The translations under genes and the position numbers were made by a program. Under the pieces are notes generated by a model. It made no database searches. It was not told the origin of the DNA and saw nothing but the letters and a program-made list of their open reading frames with translations. Below are positions 33,552-58,614 of a stretch of DNA of 64,000 nt, in pieces (position 1 is the first letter of the stretch; every line of letters begins with the position of its first letter). Source of the stretch: Yuukianura sp. NJ FZ-2021 (lineage: Eukaryota); assembly GCA_046563655.1 (NCBI GenBank), contig CM102288.1:3782001-3846000 (forward strand). Reading direction: 5' to 3'.

Positions 33552-34545
<994 letters not shown>

Positions 34546-34866
34546 AGGCATTGTGGCTAGCACTTTACTTACTATTTCCACTATTCAATTCAATTAATTT
34601 ACGAAGTTTCCATCCAAGTACACCACATTACTCTTTCTTCTCAAAATATTGGCAAAACATTAGGGAAAAACCTATTGTCTTTGTGCAATGGGAGGCGGAA
34701 GGTGAGAAAATAAACTCTTCTTGTAATTAACTAAACTAATTAATTAATTGCTTTATGATTAATCAATCATTCTCATCCACTGATATCGTAATCATTCATT
34801 ATTCAACTTTTGGATAAAAAGATGCTGCAGCAGCGGCATTTGTATTCTCTTCTTACTTTTGCCAAA

Positions 34867-35116
34867 ATGAATTTGGGTAAAACAGTGTCTCTTGTGAGTA
34901 AAACTTTAACTTTAACTTTGATTAACTTTTTATAACATTTAAAATTATTTTATATTTAAATCTTTTCAGTTTATCCTGCTGCTGTTCAGCATCACGCTGT
35001 TATCAATCAGCTTCGAAACTTCGGAAGCCTTTGGAAAAAAGTTCAAGCACAAAATTATGAAGAAACTACTGAAAAAGAAGGGCTTCGGGTCAGCATCGCT
35101 CGGGTTCAAAGGCTAA
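34867..35116 (+). CDS. Small secreted cationic peptide precursor (57 aa, antimicrobial-peptide-like), two exons
   Basis: CAAAATG start. Exon 34867-34893, intron GTGAGT..TTTTCAG at 34894-34969, exon 34970-35116. Product: MNLGKTVSL/FILLLFSITLLSISFETSEA-FGKKFKHKIMKKLLKKKGFGSASLGFKG*. Confidence 0.75.
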
Positions 35117-35356
35117 CTCAGGAAAACAGTTTTTGAAGCAGAATTAGTTTCATTTTACTTCGCATTTTTTTATTATTTGAAATTTTACGGTATTTTTGAC
35201 TCTACAAACTAAAAAATTAGAAGAAAAAGTTTAGTTTTTGTATAATTTAATACCTTATGGCAACTTATATCCTCAGCCTCTGCCTCTATTGCTAGTTAAT
35301 AGAAAAGTTGAGGTAGTGACCTTGTAATCCAAATCAGGTCAAAGGTCAATGTCTTT

Positions 35357-38300
35357 CTACCAAACAGTACATCGTTTTTCTGGTCCTGGATTCATGACAG
35401 TTCCAATGGCACAGTTCCAGGATTTAGCAAAGTCGCCATTGTTCGAAAGTGGTCCACGGACACGGAACCTTCCCGGACTATGCGGATCCGTCAGCACTTG
35501 ATTGGTCAATCCCTGTGTCGTGATTTTTTCACACCACATCTAAAACGAAACAAGAAGAAATCAGCGTTCAGCGTTTACGCATGCGCTGAATGTATTTTAA
35601 ATTGTTGAACTTACATTTGCGTAACCAATGAAAAAGAGTTGTTCTGGCGAATACTGTTCCAGTCCGGGAAGACGTTTCTCTGGACCATTGTTGTTTACGT
35701 AGCGACGGTAAGCCAGAAGTGACTCTCTGAGGCCACCGTTGTCAGCAATGTTTTCTCCCAAGGTCAACTGACCGTTGACATGCAGGTCAATTTCTGGTGG
35801 CTGGAAGGCACCGTACTGGTCACGGATACAGTCAGTTCTGGTGGTGTACTTAACCAAAGTGGCATTGGTCCACCATGGATTTGCGTTTCCATCGGCGTCA
35901 TACTGCCGTCCTTAAATTTTTTGGAAAAAGAACAGTGATTTTGCAAAATTTAATTTAAGTTGTTTTATGAAGAAGCTTTCGGAAATATTGAATTTTTATG
36001 AATTACCTGAATTGTCGAATCCATGAGTCACCTCATGACCAATTACTACTCCGATGCCCCCGTAATTCAGATACCTGTTCAGAACGAACCATTTTTTAAA
36101 ATTCTGAAATTTCAAAATTTGAATTAATTTTTTAAGTTCGAATTACGCTGGTGCTCCTCTTTTGAAAAATGGCGTCTGGAGAATACCGGCGGGGAAGGCT
36201 GGTGGAACAGTGAAAAAAATTGTTTCAATTCAGGGAAACTTTTTTTTTGAAAAAATTGCAACAAAAAAAAAACGGATCTCACTGATGCTGTTGTATGTTG
36301 GAGCGTAGAAGGCATTCACAACTCCAGGATAAGTGAGCCATCTGAATTACACATGAATTATACATATGAATTACATGAATTATTAACAAAGTAATTAAAG
36401 TAATTAATATAGATAATTAATAAAAGTGTTAATTTACTCGTCACGATCTACCAAGGTTCCGTATTTTGCCAGGGCTTTGTCACCGCTCCACTGTGAAACT
36501 TGGCGAACAGACTCGAAGTGGTTTCCAGGAACAATTTCCAACTAAAAATTCAGTAATTACGAATTACTTTTTGAATTACTTGTAATTACTTTAATACGAA
36601 TACATTTAATTACTATTCCAATTACCTTGGCGTAGTACTCTTCCACCTTTGTCTTATTTTTGAGCCACTGAAATAAAAATATTGTCAAACATGGGAGATT
36701 TTTTTTTCCGAAACTTCCAGATATGCGTTTCTCGAAAGTGTTTGAAATTTTAAGCAAGGTCACAGTTGACCTCTGACGACCTTACATCAGGATAGGCCAT
36801 GAAACTTCGCATTTTGTCAGCTTTGACCTGCCCCTTGGCCCTGGTTTCATCGTCCATCCAAGTGGCTTCGTCCAGCAGTTGCTTGAAAGAGGCCCTTAAG
36901 TCCTCCACCATCGTGTTCACCTCGGCCTTGGCCTGCTCATCAAAGTTCGCAGCCACAATGTACTTGACTCCAATGGCCATTCCAAACCCATTGTTCGAAG
37001 CATCTGCGCAGGTCTTCTGTCTAACAAATCATAAATCCAAACAAATTCCTTTGGAGTCCAATTTTTCAAAATTTTTGTTCAATGCTTCAAATTTTCTAAA
37101 GTTGAACCTGGTAGGCGGTTCTTTGGCTCCCGTCAGCACTTGATTGAATTTGAACGCAATGTTGCGTAACTCCTGCGTCGTTTCTCCACTCAGCCCTGAA
37201 ACGTATCGAAACTGGACATAGTTAGCTACTGTCCGAGGATTGGTCGCTTGAAGAAGTGGAACAAGGTCACGGAAGTATTGGGTTTCAAGGACGACCACTT
37301 TCGTGTCAGAGGTCAACTTCACTCCACTCGTTTTGAAAACGTTGTTCAAATAATTCAACCAATTGAGGCTCTAGAAGAAAAAACAGACAGGAGGTCAATC
37401 ATTTCTTGTTGTGTGCGTGACCTTGACCTTACCACTCCAAGATGACCTCCGAGGTCACCGTAACTATCAGTGGTGGCCTGGAATTGTGGAAGTGTGAATG
37501 GATTGTACATCCTATCGGTGTCTGTCCTCAGTTCGTCCTTGGTTGTGATCTTAGCCAGTTCGGCTTCAAAGGCCACGAGCTCCTCGGCTTCTGATTGGAC
37601 CAATTCGGAATCAGGAGAATCGCCGCCTGCTTGAGCCAAAACTTCAACGGTTTCTGTGACATAGGTCATGTAGGCCGCTAAAATTGAGTCATAGGCTCCA
37701 TCTTGGTTGATGAGCATGTCACGTGGAAGGTTCAGAGAAGGTTGGTCAATCTGTTCATTAAATATATTATAATAAATTTAAAATGTAATTAGATTTTAAG
37801 TAATTAAACTTACGTAAATGGAGTAATGGTTGGAGTCTTTCAGATCTTGATCAACATAAACAGAAATAATGGCAGTGTCCAGAAACGTTCGGCGCAGGTC
37901 GGCAATGGTCGTGAGCCAATCAAATGACGAGAGTTTCCAGGACGGACCAATCAGCATCGGCCAGTCTCCATGCTGCGGTTGCTGCAAAGTGTCACGAATC
38001 GGTTTGACCCCGACATCATCCAACGTTTCTTTTCAAAAATTTCGAAATTTCAAGAAAGTAGAAAAAAATCAAATTAATTTAAATTTTTTGAATTTACTTG
38101 TATCCAGGCAGGCCTTGTAGAAATCCTTGACTTGATTCACGGGTTTCGGATCTTCGGTGTCTTTTTGTGCCGATAAAATTTCTGAAATCCGTTTTCAAAG
38201 TATTTGTTAAGTTAATTTTGACTAAAAAGTTGTCCAAAAGTTGACCTTGCTTGACCTCTGACCTTGAGTGATGTTGTTGACCTGTTCTCTGAGGTAGTTG

Positions 38301-50280: not shown

Positions 50281-53200
50281 ATGGTAGTGATCAAGCAAAT
50301 CAAATCCTACGACCTTCCTGCACTGTTTCCATCAAAAGTTGGGGTCATCGCTGTGTCAGTGGACAACCAAGTTGTCACCCTTCATCGCAAAGGAGCACTA
50401 ATTCTTGTAAGTAATCAACGTTACATGAGAATAAGGGGGTGTGGTGCAGGATGTTTAATTGTTGTTAGTCTACTGATACTTAATGATACAGTTCTATTCT
50501 TAACGTGTACTTGGAAAGTAATTGTTAATTAGTTGTAGTAGGTTCTGGGTTAGTCAAAAATCATAAATGAAGGGGTAAATAGGGCTGATGAGTCACTTTT
50601 TTTTGGAGATACTGTCGATAGTTTGTCTTTTGTTGGGTAACACGCAACTTTTTATCTTTTGTTTGTAGTAACTCTCGGTAAATATTTGACGGTCACTGTC
50701 CATCATTCGAAAAATACCAGTTGTGGTGTGCCCATTACGGTAACTGAAACTGAACTTCTGGAAGATCAATTTCCTAATTTTGATCTTTAGATCTCAGCCT
50801 CCTCCAGATCTTCATAACTGTTAAACATGTTAAAATCAATGTCAAGATTCTACGGCATCATAATAATCGTCATACTGCTGCCAAGTTCTCTGTCCCAGAA
50901 GTTAGTGCTAGACAAAGGTGGATTTTCGGGCAAAGATGTAACACCAATCGTCTTTGGTTCTGAAGAGAGCAAGGAAGTATTTCCAGTGGCTTATGCCGAT
51001 TTCAACTCAGACAAAATCACCGACATTCTGAGCCTGTCACGCGATCAGTCCACTTTGTCCATTTGGTTTGGCCAAGAAACACTTTCTCCTCTATTCAAAC
51101 AGTCAATCCAATGCAGTCTGCAAGAAAACTGGGAAGGTGTTGGATATGCTGGACGAAACGCTCCAATGAAAATAGTCGGAGTCGTTACTGCTGATTTCAA
51201 TGGAGATTCAATTCTTGATGTCATGATTACCTACAAGAGGAATCCAGAAAAGGTGTTGCATAACGACGGAAATGCTTGTGTCAACGTCACGAGCAGTGTG
51301 GAAGCTGTCATTTTCCGAGGAAACTTGACAACTTTAGAGTGTAACTTGCCAGTACTTCCGGATCATGTCATTGATAATCTCGTGGATGAACCTTTGGCTC
51401 TTGACATCAATGGTGACATGGTCATGGACCTGTTTGGGGAAGTTTATGTTCCGGGAAACCTTGATGCTGAGAAAAATTGTTCAAGAGTGAAGATTGAAAA
51501 GAAAATTTGGTTGTTCAAGTCCACTTCAGCAGGAGACTTTACTTCGACACCCATTTTGCCGCCCACACCAATCAATTTCACACTGGCCGATCACTCTTTC
51601 CCTGACCCACATGACACCGTCAACTGTACGAGACCGCATGTCAACTCTTTTGGTGACATTGACGATGACGGCGTTCCAGAACTGATTCTCATAACCGGAA
51701 AACTACAAGAATCGCATGACCACAACAACTCCTGGAAGTACCAACGAAAAATTTACCAAATCAAGCTGGACGATCCCACTGTACCGAAGTTTCGTCTGAT
51801 GCTGCCACCAGTAGACATCACATCTCCAAGTCTGGTCGATCCACAAGTCATTGGTCAACCAATCCTGATGGACTTGAACCAAGAAGCCAAACTGCTTCAA
51901 CTATTTCCATTTTGCTCTGGAAAACATTGCGGCAAGGGTGCCAATGGAATCTTGGTTGTCACTGAAAATAGAACAGAAGTTTTACCGATCGACTTTGGGG
52001 ATGCTACTGGAAAATGGCATTACGATTTCAACAAGCATGAGAAACAGTATCCCAATGGCAGTCCACACTCAAACTACTCTCAAGCCCTGACACTTCGGGC
52101 GGGAGATTTCAATTTGGATGGATTTCCAGACCTTATCGGAATTCTTCGACCTTCTGGAAGAGAAAAGGAGCGGGAAATTATAAACAGTCGAGCAGTTTTG
52201 TTCGAAAACGTTCCATGTACGTCCTCTGACAAATCGACATGTCCATTTCCCAGAACGTTTAAGATTAACTTTGATGCTCTTAACCAATACCATAATGTCA
52301 CTTTGGCCACATTCTTTGACCTCCACGAAGACGGCCTCGTTGACATCATCATTGTTCGCAAGACAGACGACAAGTCAGAGCGATACAAAGACACTTACTC
52401 AGTCTATGCTTTTCAAAATAGTCCAGACTACGATGCCAACTTTATGAAGGTCATGGTCCTGTCCGGGCTACCCTGTCTACTATGTCCACAGACTCAGACA
52501 CCTTATGGAAACCTTCTATCCGGTCCAGTCATCAAGTACATGACGACAACTCAGGCAGATCGGTATCAAACAGCAGTTGCTGCGCAGTTTTACCGTTCGT
52601 CTCATTTTGCTCTGGATTTACCCTATACGATCTTCGGTGTCGGTCAATCACCGAACTTCATTGAAACACTTGAGATTTCGGTATCGACCAATCGGAGTTT
52701 GCGTACTCAACAGTGGCAACAACTCATACCCAACTCCCAGATAATTGTCATTCCAGCACCACTGGACCAACCGTTTTTCTGGAGTGCCAAGTTGTTTCTA
52801 ACACCAAGTCGAGCTGTTCTGAACACTGGACTTGTTCTAATTGGATTCTGTACCGTAATTTGTCTTATAATTGGCGGACTCCAATATAAGGAAAGGCGAG
52901 ATGACATGAAGGAGAGACTTCAAGAAGCTTTTCATATGATGTGAACCTCAAAATATTAATTTTAGTCTTATTTTTGTGCCACATTTTCCTTCTACTATGT
53001 TTAGTAATCTAAAAAATGTAATTAATCATGAACTAATTAAGTAATTAATTAATTATTTTGTCGTTAATTAACAAAAACCCAACATGTTATACCGCACTAT
53101 GACTAATTTATTCTCTAACTTTTACAATATAATCAATTACACAGTAGATTGAGATCTGCGCACAACTAAATGCCTGAATTATGCTAAATTAGAATAAAAC

Positions 53201-56411: not shown

Positions 56412-58614
56412 ATGCTTCCGAATGTTACCGAAGTTAAAAATTATAGTCTCGTTACACCCCATTTGAACGTTACATATCGACCAGACTACGGTGACTTCTC
56501 CGACTACAATTGGACAGGATTTCCATGTCTGCGTAAGTGACTCTCTAATACGGATAAGTGATATATACTATTGTTTTTCTCAAATACCATCGTAGGTACC
56601 ATCTAACTGTCTACAGGAGGCATTTGGAAAAAGTTACGATTAGGCTGAGAAATTCACTAAAGTGTAACTTCCTTATTTATGACAAATTGAAATTTTCCAA
56701 AATATTGTTTTTCTCAAATACCATCCTACCATCTAACTTTCTACAGGAGGCATTTGGAAAAAGTTACGATTAGGCTGAGAAATTCACTAAAGTGTAACTT
56801 CCTTATTTATGACAAATTGAAATTTTCCAAAATATTGTTTTTCTCAAATACCATCATACCATCTAACTTTCTACAGGAGGCATTTGGAAAAAGTTACGAT
56901 TAGGCTGAGAAATTCACTAAAGCGTAACTTCCTTATTTATGACAAATTGAAATTTTCCAAAATATTGTTTTTCTCAAATACCATCATACCATCTAACTTT
57001 CTACAGGAGGCATTTGGAAAAAGTTACGATTAGGCTGAGAAATTCACTAAAGTGTAACTTCCTTATTTATGACAAATTGAAATTTTCCAAAATATTGTTT
57101 TTCTCAAATACCATCATACCATCTAACTTTCTACAGGAGGCATTTGGAAAAAGTTACGATTAGGCTGAGAAATTCACTAAAGCGTAACTTCCTTATTTAT
57201 GACAAATTGAAATTTTCCAAAATATTGTTTTTCTCAAATACCATCATACCATCTAACTTTCTACAGGAGGCATTTGGAAAAAGTTACGATTAGGCTGAGA
57301 AATTCACTAAAGTGTAACTTCCTTATTTATGACAAATTGAAATTTTCCAAAATACTATGTAAAAAATAATAATTCTATATTAATGTTTGAAGGTTATCGG
57401 TGGTATGCCTACTATGTCGGTGGGATTTCGACGACGGCGCTCTGTTCTTTCGCAATTTTTGGCAACATTGTTTGCATCATCGTCCTCTCTAGGCCAGTCA
57501 TGAAATCTTCAGTGAACTTCATTTTACTGGCGCTGAGTTGTTCCGACTTAGTCCAAGTCATTGCATCGCTGCTCATGCGTGGAATTCAGCGAATTGGAGA
57601 AGCCCATTGTGCAGCGATTTACTTCACCCATTGGCTCCAGCCCATCCTCACGCCATATTTGTTTCCTCTAGGCACAACCGGTGAGTCAAACAGTCAAAAC
57701 ACAATTCTAAAATTTGAACGTAAAAGCTAATCTAACTTACTAACTTTATTTTAAAACAGCGCAAGTTGCGTCCGTTTACCTCACGGTTCTGGTGAGCGTC
57801 GAGCGTTATGTCGCCGTTTGCAAACCGTTTAAAGCCCGAATTTATTTTTCATGGCACAAGTCATCTCTGTTTTGTCTTGGTGTTTTTTTCTTTTCGTTTT
57901 TGTACAACATGCCAACATGGTTTGAATTGGACACAAGAGCAAGATACGTTGGAGATCACTTCTATGGGCTGTCAGTCCGAAGGACAGCTTTGTACAACGA
58001 CCCTACCTACGTCTTCTACTACGTCAATCTAGGCTCATTCATTGTCATTCGTGTCATTCCGTTTGCGCTACTAGTCGTCCTCAATGCATTCATCTATTAT
58101 GCCGTAAGATTTCTTGACATGAGCATTCATTCTTTGATTTTGAAAACCTGATTTGATTCAATTTTTTGGTAAAATTCTAATTTGTTGTCCGCAGATTCTG
58201 AAAATGAACAAAGCCCGCAAGACCATGACGCATCTCCAATGCCAAGAAGTGTCCGTCGCTCGTATGTTGCTCCTCATTGTGGTCATCTTTCTTCTCTGTA
58301 ACTTCGTAACCATAGTTACTCATATGATGGAGTCTTTCGAAGTCTACGTTCCATCCGAACTCCAAAGTGCTTCCAATTTCCTTGTACTTGTCAATACTGC
58401 TCTAAACTTCATCATCTACTGCTTCCTGAGCGGGAATTTTCGGAAATGCTTGTTCCGCCTACTTGGAGCTTCACGGTATCCGGAGTACTTTAGAAGTAGA
58501 ACAGGAAATGAATCAATATTGCAAGCATTGAGAGCCCGGTTGAGAGAAAGGAGGTTTTGGCTTAGGCGTCCAAGAACGACCCGAACTACAACAACAACAA
58601 CAACAGCAGTGTGA
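56412..58614 (+). CDS. Class A GPCR, FMRFamide-receptor-like peptide receptor
   Basis: Exon 1 (56412-56532) carries four N-glycosylation sequons and joins 57392 in frame. GN in TM1, LALSCSD in TM2, SVERYVAVCKPF, and NTALNFIIYC in TM7. Confidence 0.85.
56569..57354 (+). repeat. 130-bp tandem repeat, 6 copies, in GPCR intron 1
   Basis: AATATTGTTT recurs at 56701, 56831, 56961, 57091 and 57221 (period 130). The first copy is slightly diverged. Confidence 0.97.

Follow-up and report, generated by a model that had tools for sequence, protein, structure and literature searches.

Between a proteasome alpha subunit gene and the 3' end of a neprilysin-family gene lies a short reading frame, split by one intron, that a sequence-only reading had taken for a secreted, lineage-specific antimicrobial peptide. 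Two questions follow: is the frame a working gene, and what would its product do? We addressed them within the window, by which we mean the whole 64,000-nucleotide stretch analysed (G000:C6:3782001-3846000), and across the 98.7-Mb genome of 22 contigs to which it belongs (G000). The window is gene-dense and its introns are short. Elsewhere in it, an ITFG1-like gene at 50818-52944 forms one open frame of 708 codons, unusual among short exons; two of its 11 matches are crustacean, at 29-31% identity, and the closer ones are environmental proteins. At 57744-58614 there are exons of a Rhodopsin-family 7TM receptor, with weak Srw/Srx profile matches. The peptide gene and its neighbours are laid out as follows.

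33594..34545, + strand: proteasome alpha subunit gene, upstream neighbour (Pfam Proteasome, E 4.9e-26; exons read)
34867..34893, + strand: exon 1, the start codon and first 9 signal-peptide codons; 1 synonymous change in the C7 copy
34894..34969, + strand: phase-0 intron, 76 nt, 15% GC, consensus ends
34970..35116, + strand: exon 2, 48 codons, TAA included
34970..35029, + strand: signal part of exon 2, residues 10-29, ending S-E-A (from hydropathy; cleavage judged by rule)
35030..35113, + strand: predicted mature peptide of exon 2, 28 residues, with a Lys-rich helix at 1-16, a Gly-rich tail and a terminal Gly
35114..35116, + strand: stop codon TAA; the C7 copy still has it, the C4 fragment has lost it
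35357..37777, - strand: neprilysin-family (M13) gene, 3' part, downstream neighbour, tail to tail (Pfam Peptidase_M13 and Peptidase_M13_N)

The proposed two-exon model proved exact, with its ATG at 34867, its stop at 35114-35116 and 57 codons in all. CAAA stands directly before the start codon (34867-34869) and the intron runs from a GTGAGT donor to a TTTTCAG acceptor, both as had been claimed; its size is ordinary, six introns beside each other in the window measuring 59-96 nt. An in-frame ATG also lies upstream, at 34822; in a second copy of the gene a stop closes that frame. The gene starts 321 nt behind the proteasome gene, which we take to be alpha-5 (PSMA5), and the neprilysin stop (35357-35359, minus strand) lies 240 nt from it.

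The genome holds two further copies of the peptide gene, here called the C7 copy and the C4 copy. The C7 copy is whole, with start, both splice sites, frame and stop all kept, and therefore offers a comparison from which selection can be read. It differs from the gene by 6 synonymous and 4 amino-acid-changing substitutions (omega 0.20, Fisher p 0.010); under stricter counting these become 5 and 5 (p 0.05). Amino-acid sites have changed at 4/132 positions against 20/153 intron sites (p 0.002), while synonymous sites, at 6/39, have changed at the intron rate. Indels are absent from 174 coding bases and number 14 in 545 non-coding ones (p about 0.01). The intron of the C7 copy, 75 nt long, differs at 10/74 bases (13% diverged) and by 3 indels, with both ends intact. 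The numbers are small, and when total substitutions in the coding part are set against the gene's own intron the difference reaches only p 0.07. Three of the four amino-acid-changing substitutions fall in the signal part; the mature part has the remaining one, besides 3 synonymous changes. Codon use points the same way: third-position GC stands at 0.65, compared with 0.35 and 0.31 at the other two, and the synonymous-codon score of +12.5 bits is the best of the six frames, the other forward frames scoring -5.7 and -0.4. Thus, because the C7 copy is intact, because amino-acid changes are rarer than intron changes and because codon use is coding-like, we conclude from these sequence comparisons that the gene is very probably real and, with high confidence, that it works.

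The C7 copy sits in a 4452-bp inverted-repeat element (G000:C7:9606049-9610500; L009 and L002), whose terminal bases match at 22 of 22 positions, which has a 6-base repeat on both flanks and whose arms have 38 matches genome-wide. Its cargo derives from window positions 34198-35730 and 37362-37474, and comprises the whole peptide gene, the 3' end of the proteasome gene and scraps of neprilysin. It also includes a frameshifted gene piece from G000:C4:8000250-8001248, presumably DPH6-like, and a 430-bp palindromic insert. The element accordingly has what defines a Pack-TIR: terminal inverted repeats, a flanking direct repeat and cargo from intron-bearing host genes. As an observation in its own right, cargo and parents differ at synonymous and intron sites and almost nowhere else (introns by up to 13%), a hint that haplotypes of this species are very diverged. 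The frameshifted piece shows 9 synonymous and 0 amino-acid differences from its parent, and since a dead piece shows only synonymous changes, the differences between cargo and parents mostly record selection at the working locus. We infer that they probably reflect diverged haplotypes under such selection; they give no sign that the C7 copy itself works. The proteasome exon in the element has 0 amino-acid changes at 201 sites, and the peptide gene changes faster than the housekeeping cargo as a whole (4/132 vs 0/539, p 0.001).

The C4 copy is a fragment without exon 1 and most of the signal; its stop is lost and it lies beside tandem arrays. In this fragment (G000:C4:10340592-10341952; L003) an insert of ~880 bases interrupts what is left of the peptide gene and the end of the neprilysin gene, and the neighbouring arrays have periods of ~270 and 195 bases.

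We searched for relatives with exon 2 or the mature part as query. A word-index search of proteins of 26-84 residues gave no candidate, phmmer against 1.84 billion representatives returned 0 matches at E <= 0.001, Pfam, queried with exon 2, with the C7 copy and with the mature part, gave no family at E up to 10, and PDB sequences gave 0 matches at E up to 10. Foldseek likewise returned 0 matches, a result that tells little for a query that was a 31-residue helix model. A metagenome scan produced 597 pattern matches, 0 of them confirmed. An Atlas lead, a 62-residue arthropod cluster scoring 0.76, fell below the guide value of 0.9 and was dropped. The motif scan of the own genome found 8 matches, 3 of them the known copies and the other 5 without a signal-plus-peptide frame. 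There is no tandem family: the four own-genome candidates are the gene, the C7 copy, the C4 fragment and a chance match (L008), rejected for its stop. The family had not been recognised from the sequence, and the protein, Pfam, PDB and metagenome searches agree in finding no relative. Of the kin that the sequence-only reading had proposed to look for, paralogues exist (the whole C7 copy and the C4 fragment) and orthologues were not detected in these searches. The literature searched, in which subscription journals are thinly covered and the APD and DRAMP collections lie outside the scope, holds no description of the peptide.

The precursor begins with a signal that, as had been described, is hydrophobic and ends in S-E-A: residues 7-24 are hydrophobic and a short polar stretch follows, the best 19-residue Kyte-Doolittle mean being 2.33, from precursor residue 6. 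At -3 to the predicted cleavage the three genomic copies have Ser, Gly or Ala, all of which the (-3,-1) rule permits, and hydropathy taken with this rule predicts a cleavable signal peptide. By eye, 4/7 of the diapausin-family precursors of the same genome also seem to end their signals in E-A. These seven diapausin-family genes (L104-L110) lie on G000:C2 and C6, and one of them, L105, has a Pro/Arg/Gly-rich cationic C-terminal extension and a net charge of +7 over its matched part.

The predicted mature part has the composition first reported for it, 28 residues with 10 Lys, 1 His, no Asp or Glu and no Cys, with hydrophobic residues at 1, 5, 9, 10, 13 and 14 and a terminal Gly. It has also 5 Gly and no Arg, and a mass of 3140 Da. 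A length of 28 residues, a charge of +9.8 at pH 7, 0 Cys and 36% hydrophobic residues together make up the composition of a linear cationic antimicrobial peptide. The terminal Gly is common to all three copies, and in insect cecropins such a Gly is an amidation signal (PMC13267129). The copper monooxygenase family, which includes the amidating enzyme, has 9 matches in the own genome, not resolved to PHM.

Structure was predicted with AlphaFold from the single sequence. The model has a helix over mature residues 1-16 (pLDDT about 88) and a loose tail (pLDDT 53-61), the latter a low-confidence coil with Gly at 18 and 20, no Pro, and the residues Phe, Ala, Leu and Phe. The modelled helix is weak support, as short cationic peptides often model so. 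The sequence-only reading had gone further and seen a cecropin-like amphipathic helix, and this part of it finds no support: the peptide has no Pfam match and its hydrophobic moment, 0.25-0.28 over residues 1-17 at 100 degrees, is no better than that of shuffled sequences, being reached by 43-52% of 20,000 shuffles. On the helix the six hydrophobic residues are spread over 220 degrees with Lys between them. The periodicity peaks near 85 degrees and not at 100, a feature noticed after the fact, and eleven-residue windows have moments of up to 0.55, so that short stretches are amphipathic. Mature residues 2-7 fit the heparin-binding motif XBBXBX, a six-residue motif that is common in Lys-rich sequence.

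What, then, would the product do? We put at about even the chances that the gene works, is lineage-restricted and encodes a linear cationic peptide that is secreted for host defence and acts on microbial surfaces. By established pathways, signal peptidase would cut after Ala29 and amidating enzymes would then take off the terminal Gly, giving a Lys-amide of 27 residues. The later steps are inferred: the peptide would bind LPS, teichoic acid or anionic lipid on the negatively charged surface of microbes, residues 1-16 would fold into a helix there, and the Gly/Phe/Leu tail would dip into the membrane. With lysines breaking up its hydrophobic face, the helix would be less likely to form a pore of the cecropin type than to act as a surface carpet or by entering cells and binding polyanions. 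The original proposal of a secreted, lineage-specific antimicrobial peptide has fared unevenly: selection, indels and codon use bear out a real, secreted and lineage-restricted gene, and the antimicrobial function, which is read from composition, is partly supported.

Another way to view the gene is through the slot that it occupies. A scan with the last proteasome exon gave 80 loci, many of them short transcripts or from distant animals, and the order of proteasome and neprilysin genes is kept in 1 of the 80, from a related animal (L016; identity 91-98% in proteasome exons and 69-78% in neprilysin exons). The slot between them holds a 126-codon ORF on the same strand (L016:1875-2255), 302 nt past the stop of the proteasome gene. 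It has a TATA box, its N-terminus is hydrophobic (2.36), its GC content is 53%, and an AATAAA lies downstream. After its signal the product is neutral, with 7 basic and 7 acidic residues, and rich in Gly, Ala, Ser and Pro. No homologue of this ORF was found and G000 has no copy of it; the K-F and G-F-G spacing common to the ORF and the peptide is not significant (p 0.13-0.47 by shuffling). Homology of the spacer as a promoter, which at first seemed strong (0/400 shuffles), was rejected, the half beside the ATG being at chance (241-298/500). The signal lies in the proteasome-side half (13-47/500 shuffles; 3-13/500 for the whole spacer). A signal-bearing orphan thus occupies the slot in both animals, possibly by shared descent.

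Two points follow from the L016 slot. As its product is neutral, the case for positive charge as an ancient property of the slot is weakened. Moreover, the tail-to-tail neprilysin, whose presence had been allowed to be coincidence, is indeed best seen as old synteny that persists in L016 beside an ORF without significant similarity; since the order is kept there, the adjacency has no special tie to the peptide and is silent on function. A bolder history can be drawn from the same comparison, one that we consider unlikely: that the slot's longer, neutral secreted protein was shortened and turned polycationic in place, founding an undescribed springtail family of defence peptides that act without a classical amphipathic face, and that the gene was then copied intact by a transposon. 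If this were true, one could trace at this locus how an antimicrobial peptide was born of a secreted ancestor outside immunity and began to spread.

The L016 ORF also bears on the rival that survives best, in which the peptide is a secreted polycation without an immune role, serving as a glue, a coat or a reproductive protein by binding heparan sulfate, mucus, or a chitin-associated, egg or spermatophore matrix; any killing seen in vitro would then be incidental to its charge. The poor one-sided amphipathicity and the XBBXBX motif are what such a polycation would have, the signal-bearing slot ORF with its Gly/Ala/Ser/Pro-rich tail looks structural, and reproductive and matrix proteins evolve fast, as does this orphan gene. 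The peptide is, however, short and non-repetitive, it has no Cys, Tyr or Pro for cross-linking, and the terminal Gly, which all three copies retain, would suit amidation. We regard this rival as rather doubtful.

Host defence also competes with a neuropeptide or hormone precursor, from which either the whole amidated peptide or a 10-residue tail freed at Lys-Lys-Lys would act on a receptor, with neprilysin as a possible degrader. The signal peptide, the basic runs, the terminal Gly and the genomic copper monooxygenase genes would suit such a precursor, as would a tail with one conservative change in the C7 copy. It has no Arg, however, and so no Lys-Arg site, the usual convertase site, Lys-Lys being described as a poorer one (PMC6585902). 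Hexapod neuropeptide families are broadly shared (PMC4770511), whereas this gene has no detectable orthologue even in the syntenic relative L016, where the neprilysin neighbour persists beside an unrelated ORF. A signalling role is on these grounds quite unlikely.

A third rival denies that there is a working gene: the short spacer would hold either a frame open by chance or a gene that has lately been silenced. Loose filters do find such frames by chance: in block-shuffled windows a signal-like ORF occurred in 138/150, and in 15/150 when a net charge of at least +8 was also required. A tight filter, written after the finding, gave 0/200 block-shuffled windows, and in the real window the peptide gene is the single match under every filter. 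Sequence pattern alone is therefore indecisive against chance, and conservation in the second copy together with codon bias is the stronger argument. The absence of homologues in the searches above and of a canonical poly(A) signal would also fit a chance frame, as would an in-register antisense frame that is open with omega 0.19. That value, however, is the mirror of the sense frame by construction, and the antisense frame has no early ATG and a lower codon score (+7.2 bits vs +12.5). Given also the selection, the indel pattern and splice ends kept in a 13%-diverged intron, the absence of a working gene is very improbable. Slightly less probable still is an uncleaved membrane anchor with a cytosolic Lys-rich tail, a micropeptide regulating a membrane protein, which an 18-residue hydrophobic stretch followed by many Lys would fit under the positive-inside rule, but against which stand the two Glu and the small-X-Ala site after the core, the small residue at -3 in 3/3 copies and the concentration of amino-acid-changing substitutions in the signal part.

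Regulatory signals carry little weight in this choice. Three candidates lie upstream of the start codon:

34663..34672, + strand: kB/Dorsal-like site, 204 nt upstream of the ATG, in the proteasome 3' flank; a weak lead
34697..34706, + strand: splice-donor-like 10-mer, identical at L016:1699-1708; possibly the end of an upstream non-coding exon or a 3' UTR element
34813..34821, + strand: TATA-like word with one mismatch, candidate core promoter (sequence reading; block kept in C7)

The kB-like 10-mer is 1 of 4 such in the 64 kb and is conserved in the C7 copy, where the flank around it is generally conserved (3 changes in 154 bases). It fits 10/11 positions of the Dorsal consensus (PMC2626603). 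In Drosophila, however, Dorsal sites of the repressor type are distinguished by an A at position 6 (PMC3239199), and the A-tract of this site has that mark. The site occurs in 0/7 of the diapausin-family genes within 800 bases of the match, and the literature search on it found nothing. Divergence from C7 rises from 3/154 before 34700 to 17/161 after, and the donor-like 10-mer could belong to an exon further upstream or to splicing that reads through from the proteasome gene. In L016, by eye, a good acceptor stands ~20 nt ahead of the start codon of the ORF, and another ATG, immediately 5' of the donor, would be in frame. There is no exact TATAAA on this strand from 34540 to 35400; a TATA box is seen by eye in 5/7 of the diapausin genes. 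On the gene's strand the only poly(A) signals are variants, at 35208 and 35298. Around 35197-35250, ~54 bases are identical in C7 within a spacer otherwise 11%-diverged, and this block probably holds 3'-end signals of one or both of the tail-to-tail genes.

Taken together, the orphan gene is probably real and its peptide a fair candidate for a new antimicrobial peptide. A homology-based survey of five springtails recovered only five families of antimicrobial peptides, of which diapausin is the one found in all five species (PMC10051947); with its seven diapausin-family genes, G000 belongs to an arthropod and probably to a springtail. Surveys of this kind cannot detect orphans such as this peptide. 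If it is active, some of the defences of microbe-grazing soil arthropods lie in small, unannotated, intron-split genes; if it is inactive, the locus encodes an ordinary orphan secreted peptide. At 27-28 residues the product is cheap to make and test, and the contrast with the L016 slot gives a handle on how such genes arise.

How does a host-defence peptide of this kind compare with known systems? Bovine BMAP-27 and the spider latarcins have, as here, a Lys/Phe/Leu-rich helix, a flexible tail and a Gly as amidation donor. Their precursors carry a cathelin domain or an acidic propeptide, whereas the present one has no propeptide and no evident homology to them. With cecropins (PF00272) the peptide shares a signal peptide, a linear form without Cys, a cationic N-terminal helix, a less polar tail and a terminal Gly. 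It is unlike them in having no clean hydrophobic face and a tail predicted to be non-helical. Cecropin identity was accordingly rejected, the PF00272 profile being unmatched at E up to 10 and the one-faced helix absent. The sole match to that profile in the own genome (L111), which is at another locus, was also set aside; it lies below the cut-off and looks like the tail of a ribosomal protein.

The cecropins of a springtail, ScurCecropin1-3 of Sinella curviseta, have precursors of similar length (61-62 residues vs 57 here), but their mature parts are of 38-41 residues, a range that the 28 residues of this peptide miss (PMC10051947). Unlike these three, the peptide has no Trp, Pro or Arg, and the likeness by eye amounts to only a four-residue word (PMC10051947). 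Tabulated cecropins of Aedes albopictus, with 28-36 residues and charges of +7 to +10, include the peptide in both respects, its length at the low end; its hydrophobic content of 36% is below their 42-47%, and definitions may differ (PMC13267129). With heparin-binding antibacterial peptides it shares the XBBXBX (Cardin-Weintraub) consensus, which is reported to be antibacterial in repeated model peptides, and any activity would depend on how its charges are arranged; the peptides of that group are either models or pieces of large vertebrate proteins, whereas this peptide has a stand-alone precursor (PMC3173955).

Capture of an intact gene by a transposon is likewise a known kind of event. In animal Pack-TIRs such as Drosophila Ssk-FB4, as in the C7 element, a whole, frame-intact small gene is carried between terminal inverted repeats; the rest of the C7 cargo is, in contrast to Ssk-FB4 (PMC8277862), truncated or frameshifted. 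The peptide itself, which is not a cecropin, would, if it acts at all, work in the manner of the linear cationic antimicrobial peptides, a well-known class.
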